The notes under the pieces: model-generated | What the model saw: only the letters and a program-made list of their open reading frames with translations | Databases searched by the model: none | What the model was told of the DNA's origin: nothing | Made by a program: the position numbers and the translations under genes | Shown here: positions 3,916 to 55,278 of the stretch, piece by piece | Position numbering within the stretch: the first letter of the stretch is position 1 | How the letters are laid out: each line of letters opens with the position of its first letter | Source of the DNA: Leucoraja ocellata | Lineage: Eukaryota | Length of the DNA: 64,000 nt | Reading direction: 5' to 3' | NCBI GenBank assembly: GCA_036785375.1 | Contig: JAWMAR010000008.1 | Span: forward strand, 806,001-870,000

Positions 3916-3996
3916 TCAAAATCCAAACACTCCCCCAACTGTGGATGCAATGACGACCCCCAGCACCACACAGCATATAATGATCATGATCTTCTT
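3916..3996 (-). CDS. STX1A: Canonical terminal transmembrane exon 10b: KKIMIIICCVVLGVVIASTVGGVFGF*
   Basis: Acceptor ggctacag, phase 0, TGA at 3916-3918. Matches the STX1A tail KKIMIIICCVILGIVIASTVGGIF including the Cys-Cys pair. Confidence 0.95.
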   Translation of the reverse strand, partial: KKIMIIICCVVLGVVIASTVGGVFGF

Positions 3997-6554
3997 CTGT
4001 AGCCCCCACATCCAAGCAGCATGACAGGAAGAAGAGGAGAAAGTGTTAGTTCTGTAACTTTATTTACATTTAAATGATTCAGGGTTTTTACAGAATGGAA
4101 GATGAAGCAATTCCAAAACAGATTATAACCTTCCCTTTACATCAGTAAATGTTCTTATTGATATCTTCTTGTTGCAGGCTCTTCATTTTAACAAACCATT
4201 AACATTTCAGAACCTACTTTGAAACATAAGTCCCTCACATTTCAAACCTCCCGCACACCACACATCTCTCGGTATAAATAGGACATCACATATTCCATCA
4301 CCACACTCCATCATATTCAGAAGCCATCCTCACATTAGACAACTGCTCACATTCGATGCAAACTACAACAACAATGCTCCCACTTCATATTTTAAATCTC
4401 TCTTCTTAACAAGTACCTGACATTAAACACTCGCTCATGACATTTTTTGTAGATTTAAGTAGCTGGAAACAGCTGGGGAGGTAGAGAGTATGATGTCTTC
4501 TTTCGACCTTTAATCTCAATGTAAAATGTTTACACATTATTGAAGTTAGTTAATAAGTTTTTGACTGGCATCTTACCCTAATCTACTTTTTGCTGTCAAA
4601 TTTGTATTTACAGTAATTGAAAAGCTTTGCAAAAGGAGCAGATTTTGGGAGAAAGAAGAGTATTCAAAATCCAATTTGGTTCAATCCTGAGTTGATAATA
4701 CAATACAATTTTAAGAGAGGGGTGTGATTCCAAGTGTGTGCACAAAGAGGTGTAAAGTGCATGTCCGCATGTAAGAATGTTATTTACTTTCAATTCACTT
4801 ACCATCAGCAGGCATTGAACTACATGAGGCTCGAAGGGCCGAATGGCCTACTCCTGCTAATTTCTATAGGGACACATTTTAGATTCCCTGTTGAGATGTC
4901 TGTTAAAATCTAGGCTATAATATAGACCTAAACTATCTTCTATTCCTTGTGGCCAATGGAATCATCAGCTTCTCCAACTTCTGTCAGTCTGTTATAGCAG
5001 CTCAACTATCCCATATAGTCCCTCACTCGTCACCTCACACACACCTTGTGAAAGGGTTGTAAACGTTTTAACAGTAGAGCGGCCATAAAATATACAATCA
5101 TGCAAAACAGCAAGCCACATCTTCAGAAATGGATGAGGAGAAAGTGAGAAATGTAATGCTGATACAAGAAGAACCGAGTAAAATCTAGAAAGGTACAACT
5201 CTCCTGTAGAACTATGGCACTATCCACATGTATTACATAGTGCTGTAGTTTTACAGCTGGATAATACTGTTCCAGTAACACATTCATTAGCAGTAGTGGA
5301 GACACGGGAGAGGATCCATGCTGTAACACAATACATTTCTCCCATGGCAATAAGGCTCATTTATTTTTGGGGAGAAATCGTATTACTTTTATTGCATAGT
5401 GTATTTATGTTTTTCCTTGGAGTCTATTATTATTCATTTTTTTGGGGTTAAATAACAGCACAGTTTGTATCACAGTTGATCATTTCTTTCAGATCAACGA
5501 ATTATTGTATTTTTATTATTTTGCCTTTGTCATTATTTCCTTTACAAGAATTGTTGTCAGTATTACATATGCCCATATATAATATGTGATAAAAGAAATG
5601 TTGACAATTTATAATTTTCCTTTAGTATGGTGAAAAACAAGCAGATAGAATGGAACTATAAACTGCAATGAATGATTTTATTTTGTGTTGTAAAATTATA
5701 TATTGAATATAATTTTGTGTTTGATATAAATACATTACCCTGTGCAATATTACTTAGAGAGACGGCATGATAAGCCTCAGTGTCCAGGATTGATATGGAA
5801 GGAAAAACAGTCAGGAGTATCACCTCTGATCACTACCCACAGACCTCTGCAGAAGTTCATGCAAGTACTCAGGAACTAAGGATGTAAAGCCAGACACAAT
5901 GACAAAAGGACACATATGTAGACCTATTCAAGAGATATTGAAAGGAAGTTCGCTTTCATTGTATACTTGCCTTTTTGGCAAGGGTTTATAATTTGTTGAA
6001 AAATACCAGATCTCTTAGACTTTTATTATAATCATAGCCAGAATCATTCTCAAAACCATTCAGACAACACCAATGTAAGTGTCGAGGTTAGGAGGAAAGC
6101 AAAACACTGCAGATGCAGGTTCTGATTGTTATTAAGTTATGCAGGGCTTATTGTGTTGCCATTTGTCAGTGTCGTAAATTTAGATCTATATTTTTTCCTG
6201 TAGAACTGTTCACGACTGCAAATTCATATATGGCAATATCCACACTCGTTCCTGCCTCTATACATGAACATGATCATGTTTTTATATGTTTTTCTTTACA
6301 TGTATCTGCATGTTTGATTATTTCCAAAATTCACATGGATCTGTGATGTCTTTTCCTGCTCTTTAATTTTTTTATTTTTTTTATGGGCTTAGTGGCTTGG
6401 ATTTCCCCAAGAAGATGGCAGGAATTTCTCATTGTAACTTATGATACTCATGCAAACATGAAACTTTGAAAAGGAATGCCTGTGGATTCATTCACTGTGA
6501 TGTTTGTACAGTTTCTTGGGGAGTTGATCAAGTGGGGAGGTTAGTACCTGACAA

Positions 6555-6885
6555 AGTATATTAAATTATGAAAGGCATAGATAGATTAGACAGTCAGAAC
6601 TTTTTTTTCCCATGAGGGAAATATCAAGTGCTAGAGGGCAAAGCATTAAGGTGAGTGGGGCAAAATTTAAAGATGTGTGGGGCAAGCTTTTACACAGAGG
6701 TAGGTGAGTGCCTGAAACCTCTGCTGATGGTCATGGTGGTGTCAGAAACGATAGTGGCATTTAAAAGGCTTTTGACAAGGCACATGGATATGCAGGGAGA
6801 TAGGAGTTGGCCTTGGCATCATGTTCAGTATAGACATTGTGGTCCGAAAGGGCTGTTCCTGTGCTGTACTGTTCTACGTTCTATT
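6555..6885 (+). mobile_element. CR1-type LINE 3' fragment (diverged)
   Basis: Typical 3' end: YKIMKGID-like coding remnant, tttacacagagg, tail ccgaaagggctgttcctgtgctgtactgttcta. Confidence 0.7.
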
Positions 6886-7447
6886 TTTTTAGGGCCAATT
6901 TGCTTCGATATGTGCGTCAGATAATTTGCATCTAATAAAAGCATTTTTTTTAAATTAGGACCCATGGATTGGTGTATGTGTCTGATCTGTAGATATTTGC
7001 AATGGATCATGTTTAGCAACAGTAGGCTGTAACTTCCTGGTAGTGGAAGGCTGCCCTTCTTCAGCAATAACATAGGTGCTAACCATGCATTTATATTTTG
7101 CTGATCCTTCAGTGTCAATATTTTGTATAGTCCCATCCTATTCTAAAAGGGAGAGATGCTACACAGTGACATGGTCATGTTATGCAATGGTGACATTTGA
7201 TAGACTAGAAAATGCCCAATATACAAAACAGCTGAAAGAAAAATCTGACAACCAGTAAAGCTACATCTCAAGCTTTACCAGCTGTCAAGAATTCTGAATG
7301 TCACTGGCATTATAGGAACATCCAAAAACAATTAAAAATGAACTTGCAGAAGTCCCCAGATCACCACCAGATTCCATAAGGAACAGTTGGGAAACTGCTG
7401 GCAGAACTCGCATAGCAAGTTGGAGACCTCCACAATTGCCCGGGAAT

Positions 7448-7917
7448 AGACAATAGACAATTGACAAATAGGTGCAGGAGTAGGCCATTCGGCCCTTCGA
7501 GCCAGCACCGCCATTCAATGTGATCATGGCTGATCATCCCCAATCAGTACCCCGTTCCTGCCTTCTCCCCATATCCCCTGACTCTGCTATTTTTAAGAGC
7601 CCTATCTAGCTCTCTCTTGAAAGCATCCAGAGAACCTGCCTCCACCGCCCTCTGAGGCAGAGAATTCCACAGAATTCCACCACTCTCTGTGAGAAAAAGT
7701 GTTTCCTTGTCTCCGTTCTAAATGGCTTACTCCTTATTCTTAACCTGTGGCCCGTGGTTCTGGACTCCCCCAACATCGGGAACATGTTTCCTGCCTCTAG
7801 CATGTCCAAGCCCTTAATAATCTTATATGTTTCGATGAGATCCCCTCTCATCATTCTAAACTCCAGAGTGTATAAGCCCAGCTGCTCCATTCTCTCAGCT
7901 AATGACGGTCCCGCCAT
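7448..7917 (-). mobile_element. Young 5'-truncated CR1 LINE 3' end
   Basis: ORF 7606-7917 (LGLYTLEFRMMRGDLIETYKIIKGLD...FFSQRVV) is the CR1 ORF2 C-terminus. (ctattgt)n tail. Flanked by direct repeat CCCGGGAAT at 7439-7447 and 7918-7926. Confidence 0.88.
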
Positions 7918-8837
7918 CCCGGGAATCTTCCAACCTCCAAAATTTAGGAGTAAAAGTTAGCAGTTCGGGCCTAAGCATAGTGTTTGCAACAGACCTGAGG
8001 CCAAGTTATATTCTGAAGAGATACCTAAAATAGCCAACAGGGAATGCCCAAAACCTTTATTTCTATGGACATCCAGAGATGTATTACAAAGAGACCATCA
8101 GCTAAATTGGAAGCTCGTGGAATAGAAGAAGAATTAGCGGTTTAAGATTTGACTGAGTGGCAGCAAATGGACGATTGAGTTAAGGTTGGATGTTCAAATT
8201 GGCAGCATAACTAAGATTAGCGTTGGGGTTGCAAAGAGTACTTGGATGACATGATAGAAAACAACATATTTAATTTGCCTGGCATGGCAAAACCGAAAGC
8301 ATTATAGACAAGAGCATTAATTTATAAGGAGCTAATGGATTAGGCAAATGCACAAAACAGGACTGATGTGACTGAATACCTTCCAAATGGTGTTAAACCA
8401 GAAACAATGGAGATCCAAAGGGGGGGCTGGATAAAGTATCACGGACAGATACTGAAAATAATAGGGCAAATATAATACTGGATTTTATATTGAGATTTTA
8501 TATAAAATACTGGATTTTATATCGAGAAATAAAATTAAAAGAAATTGAGAAATTCTGCTATGTCGTGATTGGACCATGCCTGGAGCACTGGGTGCAGTCT
8601 GTGTGCTACAAGTTGGGAAGGATATTTTGGCCTTAGACAGGGTAAAGCAGATTTATCGCAATAATATCTTAATTCTGAAATTCAACTGAATCTTAAGGAT
8701 TACATAATAAAGAGAAATTATGCAAAGGCCGTACTTCATGCAATTTACAAGGTTAAAGGGTTATCTGACAAGTTTTCAAGATAATAAAGGGAACAAATAC
8801 CAGATAAAGATAAACTATTTCCACTGATTTAAGAGTC

Positions 8838-9228
8838 CATCGAGGGGATTTATCGCAGTCGCTGCCTTAAAAAGGCTGGCAATATCATCAAAGACCCGCA
8901 CCATCCTGGCCACACACTCATCTCCCTGCTACCTTCAGGTAGAAGGTACAGGAGCCTGAAGACTGCAACAACCAGGTTCAGGAATAGCTACTTCCCCACA
9001 GCCATCAGGCTATTAAACCTGGCTTGGACAAAACTCTGATCATTAATAACCCATTATCTGTTATTTGCACTTTATCAGTCTATTTATTCATGTGTGCATA
9101 TGTTTATACAATGGTATATGGACACACTGATCTGTTTTGGAGTAAATGTCTACTATGTTCTGTGTGCTGAGGCAAAGCAAGAATTTCATTGTCCTATCAG
9201 GGACACATGACAATAAACTCATTTGAAC
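8838..9228 (+). mobile_element. Rex1/Babar-like LINE 3' end inserted in an older CR1 remnant
   Basis: Translates as RCLKKAGNIIKDPHHPGHTLISLLPSGRRYRSLKTATTRFRNSYFPTAIRLLN, then a 3' UTR ending gaatttcattgt...tgacaataaa. Confidence 0.8.
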
Positions 9229-9342
9229 CTGAGATGAAATGGCAGTCTAAAAATTGAAGTGAGGAATGAACACGTACTCATAAATTAGTCCGTCTGGAAC
9301 TGTTAAACTCAGATTATGAGGTTGTTAGATTTTTAATGGGAA

Positions 9343-9711
9343 CTAGACCAAGTGCAGACCCATTGGGAAGGGGGGTGGGGGGTTTGGAGCACTGGAGTGC
9401 CCCTCCCTCCCAGAGTGGCCCGACCTGCCTTGGGAGTGCATTGTGACATCACTCGGATTTTTTTTTCCAAAATGGGTGAGTTTGAAGAAATCGGGCTGTT
9501 TTAAAAAATTCAACAATTAATAACCAGAAATATAGATGGAAATGCGACAGGAAGATATTTATCGCTACCATGGGGGAAAATGTGAGTAGGATTTGTGAAA
9601 ATGGGAAGGCTGTGGCCTAGCGTTTGGAAGATGATAGGAATTAACAGGATTTACACATACAGAGACACGTCGTGGGCACAAACAAGACAAAGACTTTTAG
9701 TTATATAGAGA
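9343..9711 (-). mobile_element. Non-autonomous Helitron-like element
   Basis: On - strand begins A|TCTCTATATAACTAAAAG and ends cacttggtCTAG|T (5' TC, 3' CTAG, AT target, no TSD). Partial subterminal palindrome (cccaatggg). Confidence 0.6.
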
Positions 9712-9910
9712 TAACAATGGGAATAAGCAAACTTTGTTTTAGCCAGTCCCTTAGGATTTCGGATGAGTTGCTTTCATTCTGGTTCTGAGGTGGCTGATAA
9801 GGCCAATATAAGACCTTCCTTGGGCAAGTGTGGCTAGTGGGGTGGTCAGGTATGTGGGATGTGAAGCAATGAGCTCCTTCTGCTCATTACGTTAACCTTC
9901 TGCATGATTT

Positions 9911-10138
9911 GTTCAGTTTAGGGACACAGGATGGAAACATGCCCTTTGGCCTGCTGAGTCCATGCTGACCATTGATCACCCGTTCACACTAGTTTAATGT
10001 TTCCTTCTTTCTCATCCAAGCCCATACAGTTATAGGGAGAACGTGTAAACTCCACACTGACAGAACCCAAGGTTGGGATCGAACCCATGTCTCTGGCGCT
10101 GAGAGGCAGCAGGTCTTACTAGGTGCACCACTGTGCCG
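9911..10138 (-). mobile_element. HE1/V-SINE-like tRNA-derived SINE (internally deleted)
   Basis: Reverse strand has an A box (ggcacagtggtgcacc), B box ggttcgatccc and a CR1-derived tail. Confidence 0.75.
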
Positions 10139-10922
10139 GCCGAAATTCTCAGTGTCCTTCTGAATGCTCCTTATCTACTTTGAGCTGCCTGTATGGGCTC
10201 AGAAATCTTATGTTGCATTTTTTTTTTCTCCATAGGAGGAGGATATATTAAGTCACTGAACGGGCATAACAAGATCTGGAAATTAAATGGGTGAGTTCTA
10301 TTCCAACATTCATTTAGTAAAATTTGCTTGGCCATTTGCAGAGAGAATGACGAATAGTTTGAGAGAGACATTGACAAAGGGAAAAGAGGGAGAAGAGTGG
10401 AAAGAAAGACTGAAAGACAGGATAGAAAAAAAGGTAAAGTAGTAAGATGGGAAATAGAGAGGAAGGGAATGGAGAGTAATTGATTTTAAAATTATTTATA
10501 AAAATAGAAAAATCGCTGCAGAACTTCACCTGAATTCATCGTGAACTAATAAGTTTGTAAAATCATGGATCATATTCTGCTAAGGCAAGATGCAAATCAA
10601 TAATGCTTCTTAAGATTATACACATTGAAAGTAAACTAAAATGATAAATAAAAGAGTGTTGCTTGAATCCTGATGTTGCTCTTCAGCTTATGGAGATGCC
10701 AAAGCAAGCGAGGTCCGCACACAAGAGGAGAAGTCAGACCTGCAAGAATCATGCTCTTGGTGCCTGTAAGCAGCCCCTCCAGGAAAATCCTAGGTGTTGG
10801 CAAAATGAAATGGAGGTGTCCAGGAATGATGAGTTGTCGCCTTTCCTTTTCACACAAGCATACCATGGAACAACAGCTCAGCTTTAGTCAGGATGATTCG
10901 GTGGGTCATGCACTTTCGAGCA

Positions 10923-11000
10923 TTAACTGAGAGACACAGCCAAAGCAATGATGATAATCAACAGTACTACTGCAATGCATATTCCTATAAAGATCATTTT
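10923..11000 (-). CDS. STX1A: Alternative transmembrane exon 10a: KMIFIGICIAVVLLIIIIALAVSLS*
   Basis: Strong acceptor gttttcttcccttcccacag with branch-point-like CTCAC about 28 nt upstream. Phase 0. Lys followed by a 24-aa uncharged tail anchor and TAA. Too short for the ORF track, translated by hand. Confidence 0.82.
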   Translation of the reverse strand, partial: KMIFIGICIAVVLLIIIIALAVSLS

Positions 11001-11037
11001 CTGTGGGAAGGGAAGAAAACAGTTTGGTGAGGCTCGG

Positions 11038-11043
11038 CATGCA
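11038..11043 (-). promoter_or_regulatory. Rbfox element UGCAUG next to the exon 10a branch point
   Basis: CATGCA on + at -43..-38 from the acceptor, 6 nt upstream of the CTCAC branch candidate (11027-11031). A second copy lies at 10907-10912, just after the stop. Confidence 0.6.
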
Positions 11044-11449
11044 AATACGCACATCACACAAAGAAACTGCAGTAGCAACTAAAACATTCAAAATGTGATG
11101 CAAATTTCTGGCTGACAACTGGGCATATGTTACACACTGGAATAATACATTCAAAGTCATGACAGGAGACCAAACATGTCCCCACATATCTATGGCTCAA
11201 GGTTGGATAATGTTGGATGGCCAATTGAATAATGAGATAAAACCATGGCAGCACATGTGATGGGACTGTGGCAGTGTGTTCAGAGCACTATAGTCCCCAC
11301 AGAGCATCTCGGAATTTTTTCCAATAAAGAACCTTTAGAATGAGGTCTTATGACGTTTACTTTCAGCATGAAGATTCAGACTGCTATTAGAGTGCTTGGG
11401 TGTCAAGTTAGGGAAAGTAGCTTTTAGTTAGGATGGAGTCCCATCTTGC

Positions 11450-11827
11450 TACTTTATAGAGATGTGTAAGATCATGAGATGAATAGATCGGGTAGATGCA
11501 CAAAGTCTCTTGCCCAGAGAAGGTGAATTGAGGACCAGGGGGCATAGGTTTAAGGTGAAGGGGAAACGATTTAATACGAATCTGAGGGGTAACTTTTTCA
11601 CACAAAGGGTGGTGGATGTATGGAACTAGCTGACAGAGGAGGTAGTTGAGACAGGGTCTATCCCAACATTTAAGAAACAGTTAGACAGGGACATGGATAT
11701 GACAGGTTTAGAGGGATATGGACCAAATGCTGGCAGGTGGGACTAGTGTAGCTGGGACATGTTGGCCGGTGTGGGCAAGTTGAGCCGAAGAGCCTGTTTC
11801 CACACTGTATCACTCTATGATTCTATA
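11450..11827 (+). mobile_element. CR1 LINE 3' end
   Basis: Coding remnant tttatagagatgtgtaagatcatgag, then ttttcacacaaagggtggtg and tail gccgaagagcctgtttccacactgtatcactctatgattcta. Confidence 0.8.
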
Positions 11828-12949
11828 ACTCAGTGACCAGTTGCAGACAGGCATCGCATAAGACTTCAGGGCTTTTATTACAAGCATGAGATCTGCTTCT
11901 CACAGATCAACAGCCAGCACCAATGGTTTGCCCAGACTATACAGTGGGTGGCAGAGCCAACACAGCAGAACATGCATGCTGCCCCCATGCTTCTCTCTGC
12001 CAGGGCATTGAGGTGGCAATCAGTTTTTCCGTTCAGCACATGGTCCATCTTAAGGCTCGGTTTGTCATAAATAGGCACAGCTTCAAATCAAAAACACATC
12101 TTAACACACAGCAGCCAAGCTCTCAAGACAGCATTTGGAAGAAGCATGGAATTCAAGCAGCAATCATCATGCCTTAGAATATCTGCAATTCAACAATAGT
12201 ACGGAGATAGTGTCAAAATGGACAAAAATAAACCAGTAGTAGAGGACAATGCACCTGTAACTTGCTTTGTGTATCTGTGCACAACTGCTTAGCTGTTAAG
12301 ATTGTCAGGGTGAAATGATGCCAGCATACAAGTCCAATGCTGGCGGTCAGTGCAGAAGCCACTGGTAGGATGTAGGATTTGGAGGAAGTGGGCTGTTGAC
12401 TTGCTAACACTATGGCATCGTCTAGGTGCTCATTTAAAAGGCAAAGCTTCCTCAGACATGATCTATCAGTCAGTTGCTTCTGTTCACGTTATGTGGTGTG
12501 ACAATATTGGCAACTGGTGCTATATGCCTGTAACTATTCTCTCCCAGAGGGAAAAAGGATGCCGTGATTACATAACTGCTAAATCCAGGTTTCAACCATC
12601 ATTTTAGATGCACTAATATTTTTCTGTTTAGTTTTAATGAGCATATATTTCTCCTTTTTCTGAATTTTGTTGCATTTCTTTTCAGCAACTATTATAAAAC
12701 TTTATAATTACTTACTTTTCCTGGAATAAATAGGAATTGAAGATGCTCAAACATCTCCTGGACTATTTGTCCATCATCACTATCCCCTTTATATATTTTA
12801 AATAATTGCAAGTCATGTTAAACATGCCTTTCTGACCTGCGTAGTATGACCGAATAATTAGGAAAATTCACTGTTTGCTGTTCTAATAAATCTTTCAACT
12901 AATTATGCTAAAAATATTAATAAATCGTCTTTAAGAATTTCATAAGAGT

Positions 12950-14082
12950 TTTGTGAGTTTCTAGAGGCGGTAACAAAGGAGAAGGATGAAGACAGGGATT
13001 TTACATGCCGTTTAAATTGACTTTTGTAAGGCATTTGATAAGGTCCCATGTGGTAGGCTATTGCAGAAGGTTAATGCACATGGGATTCATGGTGAGCTGG
13101 CTAATTGGATCCCAAATTGGGGGTGGTGGAAAGATGTTTTCCTGATTGGAACTCAGTGACCAGTGGTGTACCGCATGGGTCGATGCTGGGACCTTTGCTG
13201 TTTGTGATATATATTAATGACTAGTGTGTTTGTGTGGGAGGTATGATTAGTAGGATTGCGGAGACACAAAAATCGGTGGTGTTACGAATAGCAAGGAAGC
13301 TTGTCTAAGACTACACCAGGATTTAAATCAGATGAAAAGTTGGGAAGAGGATGAACGGTTGGAATTTAACCCCAACAAGTTTGAGGTAATGAATTTTGGG
13401 AAGTCAAGCAGGGGCAGATTAAATGTTTGGAGACTTAAGGAATACTGATAAACAGAGGTCTAGGGGTCCAAGTCCATAGTTCCCCAAAAATGGCACGCAG
13501 ATCAATAGGGTGGTGAATAATGCATAGAACATGAGGCTTCAGTGGCAGGGCATGGAATGTAAAAGTTTGGATGTTTTGTGGGAATTTTACAAGACATTGA
13601 TTAAGCTGCGTGAAGTACAGTATTTTTGCGCAGTTCCTATTGCCACACTTGAGGAAGCATGTGATTGCACTGGTGAGTGCAGAGGAGATTCATCAGGATT
13701 GGAGGACATTAGTTATGGGGAGAGAGTGAATAGACCAGGCTTGTTTTCCCTGAGCAAAGGAGACCAAAGGGTGACCTGATAGAAGCATATAAGATTCTGA
13801 GGGATACAGAGAGATTATGAGGATAGATAGTCCACAACCTTTTCTCATGGTAGGGCGTGAATTTTAAGGCGAGAAGATGGAGCTTTGAGATTGATATCTC
13901 AAACATGCTGCCATAGGAGGTGGTTGGATCAGATTAAATGACTACATTTAAGAGGCATTTAGACATAATTTAAATAAGCAAGCACAGAGTGATACAGTCC
14001 TAAAGTCAGATTAGTGTAAATCGCAAAAAGGTTGGCATGGATGTTTTGGCAGAAGGGCCTACGTTTATGCTGTGCAACTCTA
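12950..14082 (+). mobile_element. Degraded CR1 LINE ORF2 (RT and 3' end)
   Basis: Frameshifted RT motifs DFCKAFDKVP, SGVPHGSMLGPLLFVIYIND, (F)ADTKIGG, then a CR1 3' UTR. Confidence 0.85.
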
Positions 14083-16540
14083 AGAGTCTTTATATTCACA
14101 CCCTATACCATCAAGGCTGCAATGATGGGAAATAATAAATTCTCCGTGTCCTACTACCTGTATAACCTAGAGACTAATTCTGACATAGTTGTAAAAATTA
14201 ACCAGAAGTTTCTCTGCTTATTTTCATCAGCCCAATTAGGTGAATTTCTCCAAACCAACTAAAAAATAGATTTAATTTGAGAGGACTCCTAATCACCAAT
14301 TTCCACCCACAAAACCACATCTTATCCCTACACACATACATGCAAGCAGAGCTGATTAGCAGTGATTATGTTAGTTAAGGATGGCACTTCAATTTATGCT
14401 CATAGAAATCTTTTTTTTTCATTTTTAATAGATCACATTTTTAATTAAACTAACTACGAAGCTATTGGCCGCACACTGATGAAATTATTCAGTCAAGGCT
14501 ATAAAAGATATGTTTATTGACTGTATCAGATTCCCAGAGATGGAAGAGTGGACCCATATTAAAAATTTCTATTCTGATGAAAAATCCATTTTAAATGGTA
14601 TTAATAAAAATGCCCTAAAGTTATTTCTTGGTGTAGTTGATGAAAAAGAGATAAACGTTCTGTTCTACTGCCCAACTGCCCTTCATTGAAGATTTTAATT
14701 TAAACAGGCTTGCACAATGAACCACCAAAATTAAACCTTGGGCATGGTTGCCTGATTGCCTAACCCAAACTGATCAGTAATTTATGTTCTAACATATGTA
14801 ACAAACAATAGAATTTGGTTTTTAATCTAAAACAGGCTGCAGCTTATTAATTGTATTTGCTTATTTTGAATTGTTAATTAACAAGCTAGCATGTTTTTAG
14901 TAACAGAAGGCAGAACACTGGAAGAACTCAGTGGGTCATGCAACGTCCGTGGATGCAAGAGGGTAAGTAAATATCTCGGGTTGGGATTCTACATCAAATC
15001 CAGACCTGCCGGACTCTTTGAGCTGTTTATCGATCCAGATTCCAGCATCTGCCGTCTCCTTTGTCCTCTAACATTTCTTTATGTTTCAAACCCATTCCCC
15101 ATACAACAATTTTTTAATCAATTAATTAATGAATGATCAGGCTCAGCAGCATTCTTACCATTCAGTGACATTTGGTGAACTCACACCTATCAACAGAGTT
15201 TTATTTCGATTTGAAGTACATGTATCCTTGATTGCTTGCATTAGAATAAATGGCAATAATGCTACTGTAATAGATGTATGCGAATCAGAATGATTAAATT
15301 ATAATAAATACACTATGGATATACGGATTGTTGGAATAGATGAAAATATGATAAATTAGTGGCATTAATTGGATTGTATGAAAGCCAATTAAGTGAGGAC
15401 AAAACTGAGGTAGATTTTGCTAAGTGTAATCTTTAGCTTGATTGGCTCCAGATAGGTTGGGCTGGAATTAATATCAAGTAGCAGAATAAATGAGTTGAGA
15501 TTGATTTGAGGTAGATTATAGTGGACAGATTTTAATAGAAATGATTCAATTATACTGACTGCTTCTGCCCACATCTGCAGAATGAATATTTCTTATCTGT
15601 TGATTGTAAAACTTAAAAAATAGCCCAGACTAAGTGACCTAGTCCAAAACCAAACATAATTGAGCAGATTTTAAAATAAACCAGTCAGCTCTTGCCCAGG
15701 GCTAATGCAGGAAGTAAAACAATAATAATGCTGGTACAACAAGGAAGCTTAATCGAGGCACAAGTGAGATATGTGGGTTTTTTTGTTGTTGGATGGAGAC
15801 CTTGCCTTACACGAGGCCTTGACAACTGGTGAAAATGGGTGATACATACAGTGGCCAAGAAAATGGAAAATAAAACAGAAGTTGACAGCTGTATTGTGCT
15901 GACCTGTTATATACAGTTGGGCAAATAACATTGGATTGATTTTATTCAAAATGATTAAATTTAGATAGATTATAACAGAGTGAATTATATCAGGATAGGT
16001 TTATTTATAAGACACTGCAGCGGTATTGATTTGACAAGGACATATTAAATTCCCCGATGGGAGGGATGCAATAAATAAATACTACTGGACAAATTGCACC
16101 ATCTGAGATTAGATCCTACTCATTGATTTATATTGGAGATAGATTTAAACAGGCAATGCATCATTTAGGCATGATGGGTGTCAGGGGTTATGAGGAAAAG
16201 GCAGGAGAATGGGGTTAGGAGGGAGAGATACATAAGGAATATGTACAGGGAATAAATTGCACTGAATTAGATGCTGTTAATATTAGCAAAGTCTCAAGAT
16301 AGATGGCAAGAGGAAAATAATGGTTGATTGGTTTCTCCTCTGTTCTCCACCATGTCATTGTATGATTGTTAAGTCACTGTGTGCAAGTCCTGCCTCACAA
16401 TTCTTCCAATCCCTCTGTAAATGGAGCTGGCAAAATGTCACATTACATTAACTTGTATAAATGACAGATGGTGTATTGGCTGCTTTTGGGATCAGAGGAA
16501 TGAATGAAAATGGCCTTTCCAGACAATGGGCATGAAAGAC

Positions 16541-16756
16541 TGTGTCGGAAAGAACTGCAGATGTTGGTTTAAATCGAAGGTAGCCACAAAATGCTGGAGT
16601 ACCTCAGCGGGACAGGCAGCATCTCTGGAGAGAAGGAATGGGTGACGTTTCGGGTTGAGATCAGTCTGAAGAAGGGTCTTGACCCGAAACGTCACCCATT
16701 CCTTCTCTCCAGAGACGTTCCCTGTCCCGCTGAGCAACTCCAGCATTTTGTGTCTC
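16541..16756. repeat. Penelope-derived palindrome with intact hammerhead-like core (16666-16693, +)
   Basis: Near-perfect inverted arms around CTGAAGA-AGGGTCTTGACCC-GAAA-CGTC. Confidence 0.8.
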
Positions 16757-17697
16757 GGCATGAAAGACCCACTGAATGTCGTAAATGTCAATACTAAGAA
16801 GTGTACGCATCTCTCCCAGGGTCCCACACCAAAAATGTTGCTTGACCTCATATTATTCTTAACCGACACTCTTTAACATACATCACAGAATCGGCTGATG
16901 CATGTGTTCTCTGCATCACACACCACTCATCACGAACTATACCTCGCAGTGTGTTACTGTGCAATGTTGTGAATAGATTAACATATTCACAAAGGTAAGC
17001 TTACATCATCACCCAATTTTCATGTATCTATTTGAGATGTCAGATCACTTTCTTCACTTAGTTTTTACTTCTACTTTCATCAAAAAGATGTTCTGATTTT
17101 TACAATGTGGGACAAATAATCATTGCTGAAACATAGTTTCACCCTGGCAAACAACAGCAATGAGATGGGGAAAGTGATTGCAAGATTTATAGTGTACATT
17201 ATGATCTAAGTTTACATCTAAGTTATAGAGAGTTATATGCAGCACAGGATCGCATGCTCCTGGACGCTATTTTTAACGTGCCTCTAGAATATCTTGTTTC
17301 TGATTTATAAATGTTTGAGTTACACCTTTTAAATACGTGAAAAACTGTGCAGCAACATAATGCAATGTGTGCACTTCTGAACTGTCGAAATTTCCTGAGG
17401 TGAAGAAAGCAGTTACATTTCTGTGAAAGACTCACAGTCCCAGAGCCAATTATAATATGTGAAGAGTATAATTGTTATCACTGACAGTCATAAAGCCAGT
17501 CGTGTGTGCAGAATATATAACCCTCATAAATCTTATTACAGCATGGGCCCCCCTCGGTGGGAGGGAAGTCGACCAACTGATGGAGTAACAATTATAGACA
17601 CACACGTGCACAATGAGATGAATACAGGGTTGCAAAACTTTTTTTTTTTGTACGGTCTCTTGTGATGGAATTGGGGACGCACAGTGAGGTCATCACG

Positions 17698-17703
17698 CAT
17701 GCA
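17698..17703 (-). promoter_or_regulatory. Rbfox element UGCAUG just downstream of the exon 9b donor
   Basis: CATGCA on +, 25-30 nt into the intron after exon 9b. Downstream position is the enhancer position in the Rbfox RNA map. Confidence 0.6.
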
Positions 17704-17727
17704 GGGTTGTTGACGTGCACTACTCAC

Positions 17728-17838
17728 CCGGCGCGCTTTACTCTGGTACTTAACCGCCTTTTTTGTGTCAGACACTGCCCTCTCTACGTAGTCAACTGAG
17801 TGCTCGACGTTGTATTCGATCCTGTCTATCATCTCTCC
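17728..17838 (-). CDS. STX1A: Exon 9b, canonical syntaxin-1 C-terminal SNARE half: [37 protein letters not shown]
   Basis: Acceptor ctctttcctcgatgcccag, donor CGG|gtgagt. 111 bp, phase 0/0. Essentially identical to vertebrate syntaxin-1 residues 227-263. Confidence 0.96.
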
Positions 17839-17914
17839 CTGGGCATCGAGGAAAGAGCAGACACGCATGAAAGTAACAGAGGTGCTTCAGCGGCCATTGT
17901 CCCCAGTCACTTAC

Positions 17915-18025
17915 CCGCCGGCTGGTACTCTTAAAATTAACTGCTTTTTTTGTGTTCTCCTTCGCGTCGCCTATGTAATCCGTTGCATTAACAACGTTCC
18001 TCTCAATGCTGTTGACCACATCACC
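17915..18025 (-). CDS. STX1A: Alternative exon 9a, syntaxin-2-like C-terminal SNARE half: [37 protein letters not shown]
   Basis: Acceptor tctttctccttctgtttcag, donor CGG|gtaagt. 111 bp, phase 0/0, open frame. 16/37 aa identical to exon 9b, with heptad-layer positions identical or conservatively changed. Confidence 0.88.
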
Positions 18026-20982: not shown

Positions 20983-21120
20983 CTGGCTTTCCACCAGCAT
21001 TGCCATGTCCATGAACATATCGTGCAGCTCGCGAATACAGTTCTCCAGTTTGATGATCTCATGATGTCGCGTTTCAATCTCATTTAGAGCCTGCTTCGTG
21101 ATGTTGGAATCCATTATGAT
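20983..21120 (-). CDS. STX1A: Syntaxin-1A-like coding exon (exon 8 equivalent, N-terminal half of Qa-SNARE to the zero-layer Gln): [46 protein letters not shown]
   Basis: Acceptor ctcttctcttag, donor CAG|gtaaga. 138 bp, phase 0/0. SGIIMDS and MFMDMAML fit STX1A better than STX1B (DIKMDS, MFVDMAML) as recalled. Confidence 0.95.
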
Positions 21121-22178: not shown

Positions 22179-23065
22179 AGGGCCTGTCCCACTTAGGCGA
22201 CTTTTTAGGCGAGTGCAGGAGACTCTGCACTCGCCTCATGATCACCACATGTTCGCTGGTGGTCTCTGGTGAGTCTCCTTCATGGTCGGGAGGAGTTCCC
22301 GCATTCTGGGAACTATTCATGGCCTCAGTATGGTTGCTGAATATTTCAACATGTTGAAAATTTTTCTGCTACCAAAAATTGGTCGCCGTGGAGAAAATCG
22401 ATAATCCTGTAGTCGTCGGTGCAGTTGTAGTGGGGTCGCCATGTAGTTATACGTAGTCAAGGTAGTCGTAGGTAGTTTTAGTTAATTGCCTTTGCTGACC
22501 GGTCATTTTCATTGGCTCATTGGACGAAAAAAACGTAAGCACGAATTTTCAGAACCAAGGATAACCGACCGGTAATGTTAAATGCCTGCCAAACTTCACA
22601 GCTGCGTATCTCTGGCTTATTAAAAGTTGTCTGGCTTCTTAAAAGTGTCTCCATTCCTTCTCCCCCCTCTTTTAAAGGACTTACCGTACACTGTGCTAAC
22701 AGTCTTAACCTTCCTGTTCATCGCGGTGTGCGTCTGTATCACCTTGGCTTTGCACCGTGTGAATTTCAGACAGCGCTCCCCCGCTNNNNNNNNNNNNNNN
22801 NNNNNNNNNNNNNNNNNNNNNNNNNNNNNNNNNNNNNNNNNNNNNNNNNNNNNNNNNNNNNNNNNNNNNNNNNNNNNNNNNNNNNNNNNNNNNNNNNNNN
22901 NNNNNNNNNNNNNNNNNNNNNNNNNNNNNNNNNNNNNNNNNNNNNNNNNNNNNNNNNNNNNNNNNNNNNNAGTCGCCTTTCCAGTTCCCGGTTTCTCAGG
23001 CGAGTGCCGTGAACTTGACAGTCGCTGGCAGTCCGCTGAAAAATTGCCTAAGTGGGACAGGCCCT
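22179..23065. mobile_element. Non-autonomous TIR DNA transposon (PIF/Harbinger-like termini)
   Basis: Perfect 20-bp TIR AGGGCCTGTCCCACTTAGGC at 22179-22198 and inverse at 23046-23065. CpG-rich interior. No clean TSD. Confidence 0.8.
22786..22970. other. Assembly gap (185 N)
   Basis: Run of N inside the TIR element. Confidence 1.
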
Positions 23066-27798: not shown

Positions 27799-27872
27799 CC
27801 CTGATGTGAAGATAGCAGGATTCCCACTCTCCAGCATGTCTTCCAGCTCCTCATTTGTGGTCGTTCTTCCAG
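27799..27872 (-). CDS. STX1A: Syntaxin-1A-like coding exon (exon 7 equivalent, linker): (T)[24 protein letters not shown]
   Basis: Acceptor ttattctag, donor GGG|gtaagt. 74 bp, phase 1 to 0. Contains the linker [15 protein letters not shown] with the L165/E166 equivalent. Confidence 0.95.
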
Positions 27873-55169: not shown

Positions 55170-55278
55170 TGATTTCAAGTTGGCGTTGGATTCGTCCTTT
55201 GCAACGCTCCCTGTAGTCGGTCTGTGTGCCATTGTACTCAGACATCACTTCCACAAATTTACGAGACAGTGTAGAATG
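55170..55278 (-). CDS. STX1A: Syntaxin-1A-like coding exon (exon 6 equivalent, Hc helix): [36 protein letters not shown](T)
   Basis: Manual translation. Acceptor ttttgtttgcag, donor A|gtgagt. 109 bp, ends in phase 1 and joins the next exon as A+CT = Thr. Peptide is near-identical to syntaxin-1 residues ~120-156, including the Cys145 equivalent. Confidence 0.95.

Follow-up and report, generated by a model that had tools for sequence, protein, structure and literature searches.

The syntaxin-1A gene (STX1A) of Leucoraja ocellata almost certainly contains a real and used alternative last exon, exon 10a, which codes for a membrane anchor and lies upstream of the canonical last exon, 10b. We further consider it likely that 10a serves as a functional alternative last exon of STX1A in the setting of the isoforms and splice switch proposed below. 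The window, by which we mean the whole stretch of 64,000 nucleotides analysed (contig JAWMAR010000008.1, positions 806,001 to 870,000), carries only the 3' part of a minus-strand syntaxin gene, with exons 6, 7, 8, 9a, 9b, 10a and 10b in the numbering of the first-pass annotation. Its features, in window coordinates, are the following.

55170..55278, minus strand: STX1A exon 6, constitutive (AG/GT borders, translation, tblastn)
27799..27872, minus strand: STX1A exon 7, constitutive (borders, tblastn)
20983..21120, minus strand: STX1A exon 8, constitutive (borders, translation)
17915..18025, minus strand: exon 9a (AG/GT borders; Pfam SNARE E-value = 3.6e-05, under the curated cut-off)
17839..17914, minus strand: intron of 76 nt between 9a and 9b, with its sole branch-point-like A 47 nt from the 9a donor
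17728..17838, minus strand: exon 9b (borders; Pfam SNARE E-value = 8.3e-15)
17698..17703, minus strand: UGCAUG, an RBFOX-type motif, 25 nt downstream of exon 9b
11001..11043, minus strand: exon 10a acceptor region (UGCAUG at 11043-11038, branch-point-like A at 11028, pyrimidine tract, AG at 11002-11001)
10923..11000, minus strand: coding part of the alternative last exon 10a (25-residue tail anchor with one Cys, stop)
10907..10912, minus strand: second UGCAUG, 11 nt past the 10a stop
10639..10854, minus strand: conserved part of the presumed 10a 3' UTR (tblastn to the tails of zebra-shark STX1A models)
3916..3996, minus strand: coding part of exon 10b, the canonical STX1 tail anchor with Cys-Cys, stop (translation)

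The identity of the gene is given by exons 6-8, whose product is identical at 107/107 positions to STX1A of Narcine, Carcharodon and Stegostoma and at 102/107 and 97/107 positions to bird and mouse STX1A, respectively. Identity to STX1B is 90-92/107 (91-92 in five shark and ray STX1B records) and to STX2 82/107. Because these exons fully match shark and ray STX1A and match STX1B less well, we identify the gene from its sequence as the STX1A of a cartilaginous fish, not STX1B or STX2. The intron that separates exon 7 from exon 8 contains an assembly gap of 185 N (22786-22970). Downstream of exon 8 the window coordinates give a cassette of four exons in the order 9a-9b-10a-10b, in which 9a and 9b are each 111 nt long, have AG/GT borders and Pfam SNARE matches, and agree with each other at 16 of 37 residues.

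For exon 10a, the first-pass annotation had claimed a 78-bp exon behind a very strong acceptor about 6.7 kb from exon 9b, and each of these points holds. The minus strand from 11000 to 10923 translates to the same 25 residues followed by a stop; exon 9b ends at 17728, which leaves an intron of 6,727 nt in phase 0; and at the acceptor, 15 of 17 positions are pyrimidines, no AG occurs over a 30-nt zone, and a branch-point-like A sits at -28. Among the 703 AGs of the intron pieces 11003-17727 and 3999-10400, only one has a tract as good. The acceptor of 10b is weaker, with 7/17 pyrimidines by its AG versus 15/17 for 10a. In that acceptor region (3997-4050) no AG occurs over 53 nt, the branch-point-like motif lies at -50, and behind the AG come two more in frame at 3-nt steps. 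The hexamers nearest to 10a that could serve polyadenylation are at 9998 and 9088.

The 10a peptide also stands out by its hydropathy. We scored every phase-0 peptide that begins behind an AG between 17727 and 1 and has 18-45 residues, and among these 291 candidates 10a has the top 19-residue hydropathy (3.48), ahead of 10b and its two in-frame sub-acceptors (2.83) and the best unrelated frame (2.08). None of 100 null introns (second-order Markov, 13.7 kb each) reached 3.48, the maximum being 2.87. With a mean hydropathy of 3.10 over positions 2-25, a phase-0 acceptor, a basic start, some 20 or more hydrophobic residues, a stop and almost no luminal tail, 10a fits a syntaxin tail-anchor exon. 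The 25-mer has no Pfam match, as expected of a bare tail anchor. The same hydropathy scan, from 9b to the window end, revealed no third anchor exon of the STX3A type, and only 10a and 10b scored.

Orthologs of 10a occur in other fishes. Our search with 9a returned 1 match from 4 candidates, the Narcine bancroftii syntaxin-1A-like isoform X4, where the tail after 9a is identical to 10a at 22/25 positions; isoform X1 has the same ending, and the Narcine records with 9a+10a are the RefSeq models XP_069766522.1 and XP_069766519.1. These records are predicted gene models; RefSeq isoform models in general usually have support from RNA-seq junctions. A catshark model contains 9a, 9b and then a tail 20/25 identical to 10a, and ray-finned fishes retain 12-17/25 among the matches listed. 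Altogether the matches listed include 10a orthologs from about 21 fish species with 12-22/25 identity, far above intron level, and the cross-species check proposed for this 78-bp island thus comes out positive. The exon had also been called hidden, and while the open-reading-frame track did miss it, 10a is already the last exon of public models from several fishes, among them electric ray, salmonids, pike, perch and sturgeon (for instance Narcine XP_069766522.1, Salmo XP_045560042.1, Esox XP_010868666.1 and Perca XP_028429344.1). In these predicted fish STX1A isoforms, all automatic models, the tails are direct orthologs of 10a and follow either 9a or 9b.

To count exon pairings we used a query spanning the catshark 9b/10a junction, which gave 235 matches from 387 candidates, 120 of them listed, and added cluster members (up to 15 listed per cluster); a search of 50%-identity clusters returned unnamed records and contributed few tails. 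From the matches listed we sorted by hand 136 records, each named syntaxin-1A or syntaxin-1A-like by its source, and left out hypothetical, unnamed and STX1B-named records. Among those listed, the 61 ray-finned-fish models comprise 5 with 9a+10a, 9 with 9b+10a, 37 with 9b+10b and 10 in which no anchor or no exon 9 was found; the 9 shark and ray models comprise 2 with 9a+10a, 6 with 9a and no anchor and 1 with 9b and no anchor; all 4 cyclostome models have 9b+10b; and the 62 tetrapod models comprise 57 with 9b+10b, 5 others and none with 10a. The pairing 9a+10b was found in 0 of the 136 STX1A-named models listed. These counts come from a biased sample, as the query contained 10a, 90%-identity clusters mask isoforms and the records are predictions, so the absence of 10a from tetrapod STX1A records (0/62 listed) is suggestive at the level of database sequences. 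Seven of the excluded records also end in 10a (P0004, P0026, P0163, P0165, P0176, P0313 and P0315), and some other hypothetical records were likewise left out. Four models contain both exon-9 copies in tandem and have the look of ab initio predictions, and at least three of them end in 10a (P0004, P0163 and P0176), while the named isoform records have a single exon 9 each. The STX1B-named records have the Cys-Cys tail in 19 of the 20 listed; the twentieth, a 129-residue paddlefish fragment whose tail is that of sturgeon STX1A 10a, is probably mislabeled.

Of the shark and ray records listed that bear 9a, 6/8 lack any anchor, so that truncated models of 9a transcripts are frequent in sharks. 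The shark STX1A models P0005, P0006, P0010, P0011 and P0012 have 9a and then a stop after a few residues, and these may reflect intronic polyadenylation or may be incomplete models.

An alignment of 23 tails (22 records among the matches listed plus the window) shows which properties of the 10a peptide are kept. All 23 are 25 residues long and share C8, I18, L20 and L24 without exception; K1 and G6 served as the filter for choosing 10a tails and so are not counted. The first-pass annotation had set the single Cys of 10a against the Cys-Cys of 10b, and that contrast is sound, with one Cys in 10a, two in 10b and the single Cys kept in 23/23 of the tails listed. Two other contrasts it drew are true of the window but not conserved: 10a has 1 Gly where 10b has 4, yet position 23 is Gly in 15/23 tails, and 10a has one leading Lys where 10b has two, yet position 2 is Lys or Arg in 5/23. 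The neighboring exons differ in how they have been kept. Exon 9b is identical at 37/37 positions to most vertebrate STX1 records listed and 10b agrees with the lizard STX1A tail at 24/26 positions. Exon 9a is 31/37 identical to Narcine, 27-28/37 to sharks and 16-21/37 to the copies in ray-finned fishes; it diverges much faster than the near-invariant 9b. Its greater likeness to the electric ray than to sharks would suggest a ray or skate as the source.

Exon 9a resembles the C-terminal half of STX2's SNARE helix. Its core layers read V, I, V, A, I, A, T, A as compared with I, I, V, S, V, A, T, A, so that all 8 are kept or conservatively changed, and at the positions of D231, R232, Y235, E238, V248 and S249 it has N, S, R, V, K and E, with Thr at K260. 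According to the available text of PMC10957171, those six positions have been tested with the residues of STX2 (N, N, R, V, K and E); of these six STX2-type surface residues, 9a carries five. In the same text, STX1A that has the C-half of STX2, or D231N,R232N, is reported to show a smaller primed pool and a raised rate of spontaneous release. In the available text of PMC9183232, C271 and C272 are both palmitoylated, single Cys mutants appear with one palmitate, K260E abolishes palmitoylation, and both the palmitoylation of the anchor and spontaneous release are under the control of K260 and C271/C272. Both data sets, as far as the available texts go, concern mouse chimeras and mutants and not the window sequences.

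Mutual exclusion of 9a and 9b by steric hindrance across their short 76-nt intron is a fair guess. The limit for steric exclusion in splicing lies at about 50 nt. As both copies are 111 nt long, double inclusion would keep the reading frame. RNA pairing was considered as another basis for exclusion and rejected, since inverted repeats of at least 40 nt between 2000 and 21300 consist only of repeat-like copies outside that intron. Two repeat copies lie head to head at 16582-16755, with 86-nt arms that are 87% complementary and 2 nt apart, and a further copy lies near 2038-2129; we take them to be short interspersed-repeat-like elements.

At the level of sequence, the anatomy of the cassette, its conservation and the three forms 9b+10b, 9b+10a and 9a+10a in public models of other fishes are established, and from these we propose the following isoforms. 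The 9b+10b form would be the ordinary neuronal syntaxin-1A, with five basic linker residues and Cys-Cys. In the 9b+10a form the neuronal helix would be joined to an anchor that is more hydrophobic and has one Cys, with K260 and the C271 equivalent kept and one palmitate likely. The 9a+10a form would be a natural STX1A/STX2 chimera that joins the Habc domain and N-half of STX1A to an STX2-like C-half; it would lack an equivalent of K260 and have one Cys and, in the linker, three basic residues where the ordinary form has five. The altered palmitoylation predicted in the first-pass annotation needs restating: 10a has the equivalent of C271 only, where 10b has both C271 and C272, so palmitoylation would more probably drop by half than disappear, unless the transcript contains 9a. 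The idea that 10a is the partner of 9b requires a similar change, as ray-finned fish models use 9b or 9a with 10a but both ray models found join it to 9a. Forms with 10a would carry less palmitate, and those that also have 9a would be less clamped. Forms of this kind may suit exocytosis that is constitutive or under loose regulation; we infer that their likely role is a less neuron-specialized, STX2-like output of STX1A. They may also differ in clustering, trafficking and fusion-pore behavior, as first suggested. Because an unclamped helix and less palmitate oppose each other in spontaneous release, the net effect is not predictable.

Which form is made could depend on cell type, and a switch between neural and non-neural cells is the reading that we favor by a modest degree. 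Neurons would choose 9b+10b, aided by RBFOX motifs that activate from downstream of 9b and repress from upstream of the 10a acceptor, and non-neural or immature cells would take 10a by default, the 10a acceptor being stronger and nearer than that of 10b. UGCAUG occurs 25 nt after 9b, 43 nt before 10a and 11 nt past the 10a stop, whereas 2.4% of random 50-nt windows contain one; it also occurs at -28 of the constitutive exon 8 and 102 nt after 10b, and the reading of these motifs is post hoc. As stated in the available text of PMC11874969, RBFOX generally has an activating effect from a downstream position and a repressing one from an upstream position, a rule that fits inclusion of 9b and skipping of 10a in neurons. 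The nearer and stronger acceptor likewise fits 10a as the default elsewhere.

A serious competitor to this switch, though we think it the less likely account, is that neurons or neuroendocrine cells use 10a as a fine-tuning variant, mainly as 9b+10a, which differs from the ordinary form chiefly in its 3' UTR and thereby in localization or stability. Among the named fish 10a records listed, 9b+10a is indeed the commoner pairing (9 versus 7 for 9a+10a), the sequence past the stop has a conserved counterpart in zebra shark, and a UGCAUG lies directly downstream of the 10a coding part. Against a difference that is mainly untranslated, the four non-selected invariant positions and the constant length of 25 in 23/23 listed tails point to selection on the protein, and both ray models use 9a. 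It would seem improbable that 10a is a decaying relic, functional in ancestors and in other fishes but silent or neutral in L. ocellata. Exons 9a and 10a do diverge faster (31/37 and 22/25 to Narcine) than 9b (37/37) and 10b, and the tetrapod STX1A records listed lack both, but the frame, the stop, the acceptor and all invariant residues of 10a are intact and its acceptor beats that of 10b (15 versus 7 pyrimidines of 17). Among the 24 sequencing runs listed for 10150-11000, 11 contain part of its sequence words and none is recorded as RNA; small shares in five runs of doubtful RNA status were given no weight.

A hydrophobic frame that arose by chance behind a chance intronic AG can be dismissed for practical purposes, even though the exon spans only 78 bp and has no Pfam match: the null introns fell short of its hydropathy in 100 of 100 cases, and conservation at 12-22/25 positions in about 21 fish species among the matches listed refutes such an origin. 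We therefore retain 10a as a functional alternative last exon, with the neural/non-neural switch as the preferred account of its use.

The sequence behind the 10a stop agrees with the earlier proposal that 10a brings its own 3' UTR, as the stretch 10639-10854 is conserved to zebra shark. Read from 10854 to 10639, it matches two zebra-shark models in their unusual tail of 97 residues (tblastn, 42% over 72 columns, E-value = 1.8e-10, 47.8 bits), while the best of 200 shuffled queries reached 28.9 bits. One of these models enters the tail after 9a and the other after 9b; as the match lies in the region behind 10a, both exon-9 copies are modeled there as splicing into the 10a last-exon region. We read the matched stretch as probable conserved UTR with a cryptic acceptor. 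An open frame of 83 codons (10887-10636, minus strand) lies behind the stop in a frame different from that of 10a, with its sole in-frame AG at 10881. Most of it belongs to the stretch matched by the zebra-shark tails, and it could encode a long-tailed form that has no anchor, or simply be conserved UTR. Read-through of the 10a stop into this frame was rejected as the frames differ, and its use as a conserved third last exon is unsupported, AG 10881 not being the point where the zebra-shark models enter.

STX1A is usually regarded as a gene with a single neuronal C-terminus. A literature search found no title or opening of an abstract that describes this STX1A cassette; coverage of subscription journals was thin, which makes this weak evidence that the cassette is undescribed. 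If fish STX1A swaps the C-half of its SNARE helix together with the anchor, studies of zebrafish-type, salmonid and electric-ray syntaxin-1A may mix forms. The natural isoforms would then be ready tests of the roles of the C-half, K260 and the anchor cysteines in spontaneous release, and would help to date when syntaxin-1A turned neuron-only.

Exon 10a brings no new kind of mechanism, and the closest known systems are STX3 and STX2. In human STX3 the order is 9a, 9b (119 nt apart), 10a and 10b, as given in the part of the supplement to PMC8373072 available to us; in the same source STX2 has two last exons, the STX2 and STX3 events are both dated to Bilateria, and the human duplicated-exon catalog contains STX2 and STX3 and, in the part available, neither STX1A nor STX1B. 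The isoform patterns of STX3A/B and STX2 are reviewed in PMC11119284 (available part). The cassette in the window shares with STX3A/3B two nearby 111-nt copies of exon 9 (76 nt apart here and 119 nt in human, on the available data) followed by two last exons in the same order, with the b pair being the STX1-like, Cys-Cys neuronal form. It differs in that 10a codes for 25 residues with one Cys and a Leu-Ser end whereas the STX3A tail has 27 residues and is Cys-free (10a agrees with tails of that kind at 5-10/25 positions), in that 9a is nearer to STX2 than to STX3A, and in that the gene is STX1A and mixed 9b+10a models are common in fishes. Strict coupling of a with a and b with b fails in 9 of the 61 ray-finned-fish gene models listed, which have 9b+10a. 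A Mobula syntaxin-3-like model (P0172) combines an STX3B-type exon 9 with an STX3A-type tail, and mixed pairing may occur in ray STX3.

By sequence, 10a is closest to the distal STX2 tail, with which it shares a length of 25, a Cys at position 8 and the Leu-Ser end, and the STX2 likeness noted at first reading is upheld by 14/25 identity to a bird (blue-tit) STX2 tail and 13/25 to the human exon by eye. The alternative last exons of human STX2 are those of ENST00000261653 and ENST00000392373, which go by the labels 2A/2B. Alignment z-scores of 10a are 5.7 for the distal STX2 tail, 2.2-3.8 for STX2-proximal and STX3A-type tails and 0.6-1.8 for STX1/STX3B-type tails, and identities are 3-10/25 to STX3A-type and 6-7/25 to STX1/STX3B tails. 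In human STX2 the Leu-Ser tail is distal, and the available part of the catalog has no second exon 9 for that gene, whereas here the Leu-Ser tail is proximal and is followed by an STX1-type tail. Invertebrate syntaxin-1 genes have Leu-Ser tails as well: those of oyster and mosquito give z-scores of 5.3-7.2 against 10a, mosquito isoforms (P0166-P0169, P0175) have a 25-residue tail 12-14/25 identical to it, and oyster syntaxin-1 X1/X2 (P0238, P0334) have one Leu-Ser tail and one STX1-like tail from a single gene. In a tree of tails (25 columns, 36 rows) the STX1-type tails are set apart from the others (98/96) and the rest lack resolution, including Leu-Ser versus STX3A types, with unsettled bootstrap values and long branches that meet. 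Exon 10a takes the place of the STX3A tail by position and resembles the distal STX2 tail by sequence.

We tentatively hypothesize, with somewhat less than even confidence, that the ancestor of STX1/2/3 had two exon-9 copies and three tail exons (A, STX3A/proximal-STX2; B, Leu-Ser; C, Cys-Cys), of which each gene kept a subset, with losses in tetrapods and an RBFOX-controlled chimera in fishes. After the genome duplications, STX2 would have kept A and B, STX3 A and C, fish STX1A B and C with both copies of exon 9, and STX1B only C; tetrapod STX1A would have lost 9a and B and become a fixed neuronal fusogen. Such an ancestor would reconcile the STX3A-like position of 10a with its distal STX2-like sequence, and fishes would naturally make the laboratory-built STX1A/STX2 chimera that unclamped spontaneous release. 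No gene with all three tail types was found among the syntaxin records compared.

The worm offers a functional parallel. According to the available text of PMC4946901, C. elegans unc-64 has alternative last exons, with unc-64A neuronal and unc-64B barred from neurons by a CELF protein. As in fish STX1A, a single syntaxin-1 gene would have neural and non-neural last exons, the worm exons being likened to ours by role, and control is by CELF there whereas RBFOX is only suggested here. With STX2, STX3 and worm unc-64 as precedents, and with 10a already present in automatic annotations, the STX1A cassette belongs to a kind of system that is already known.
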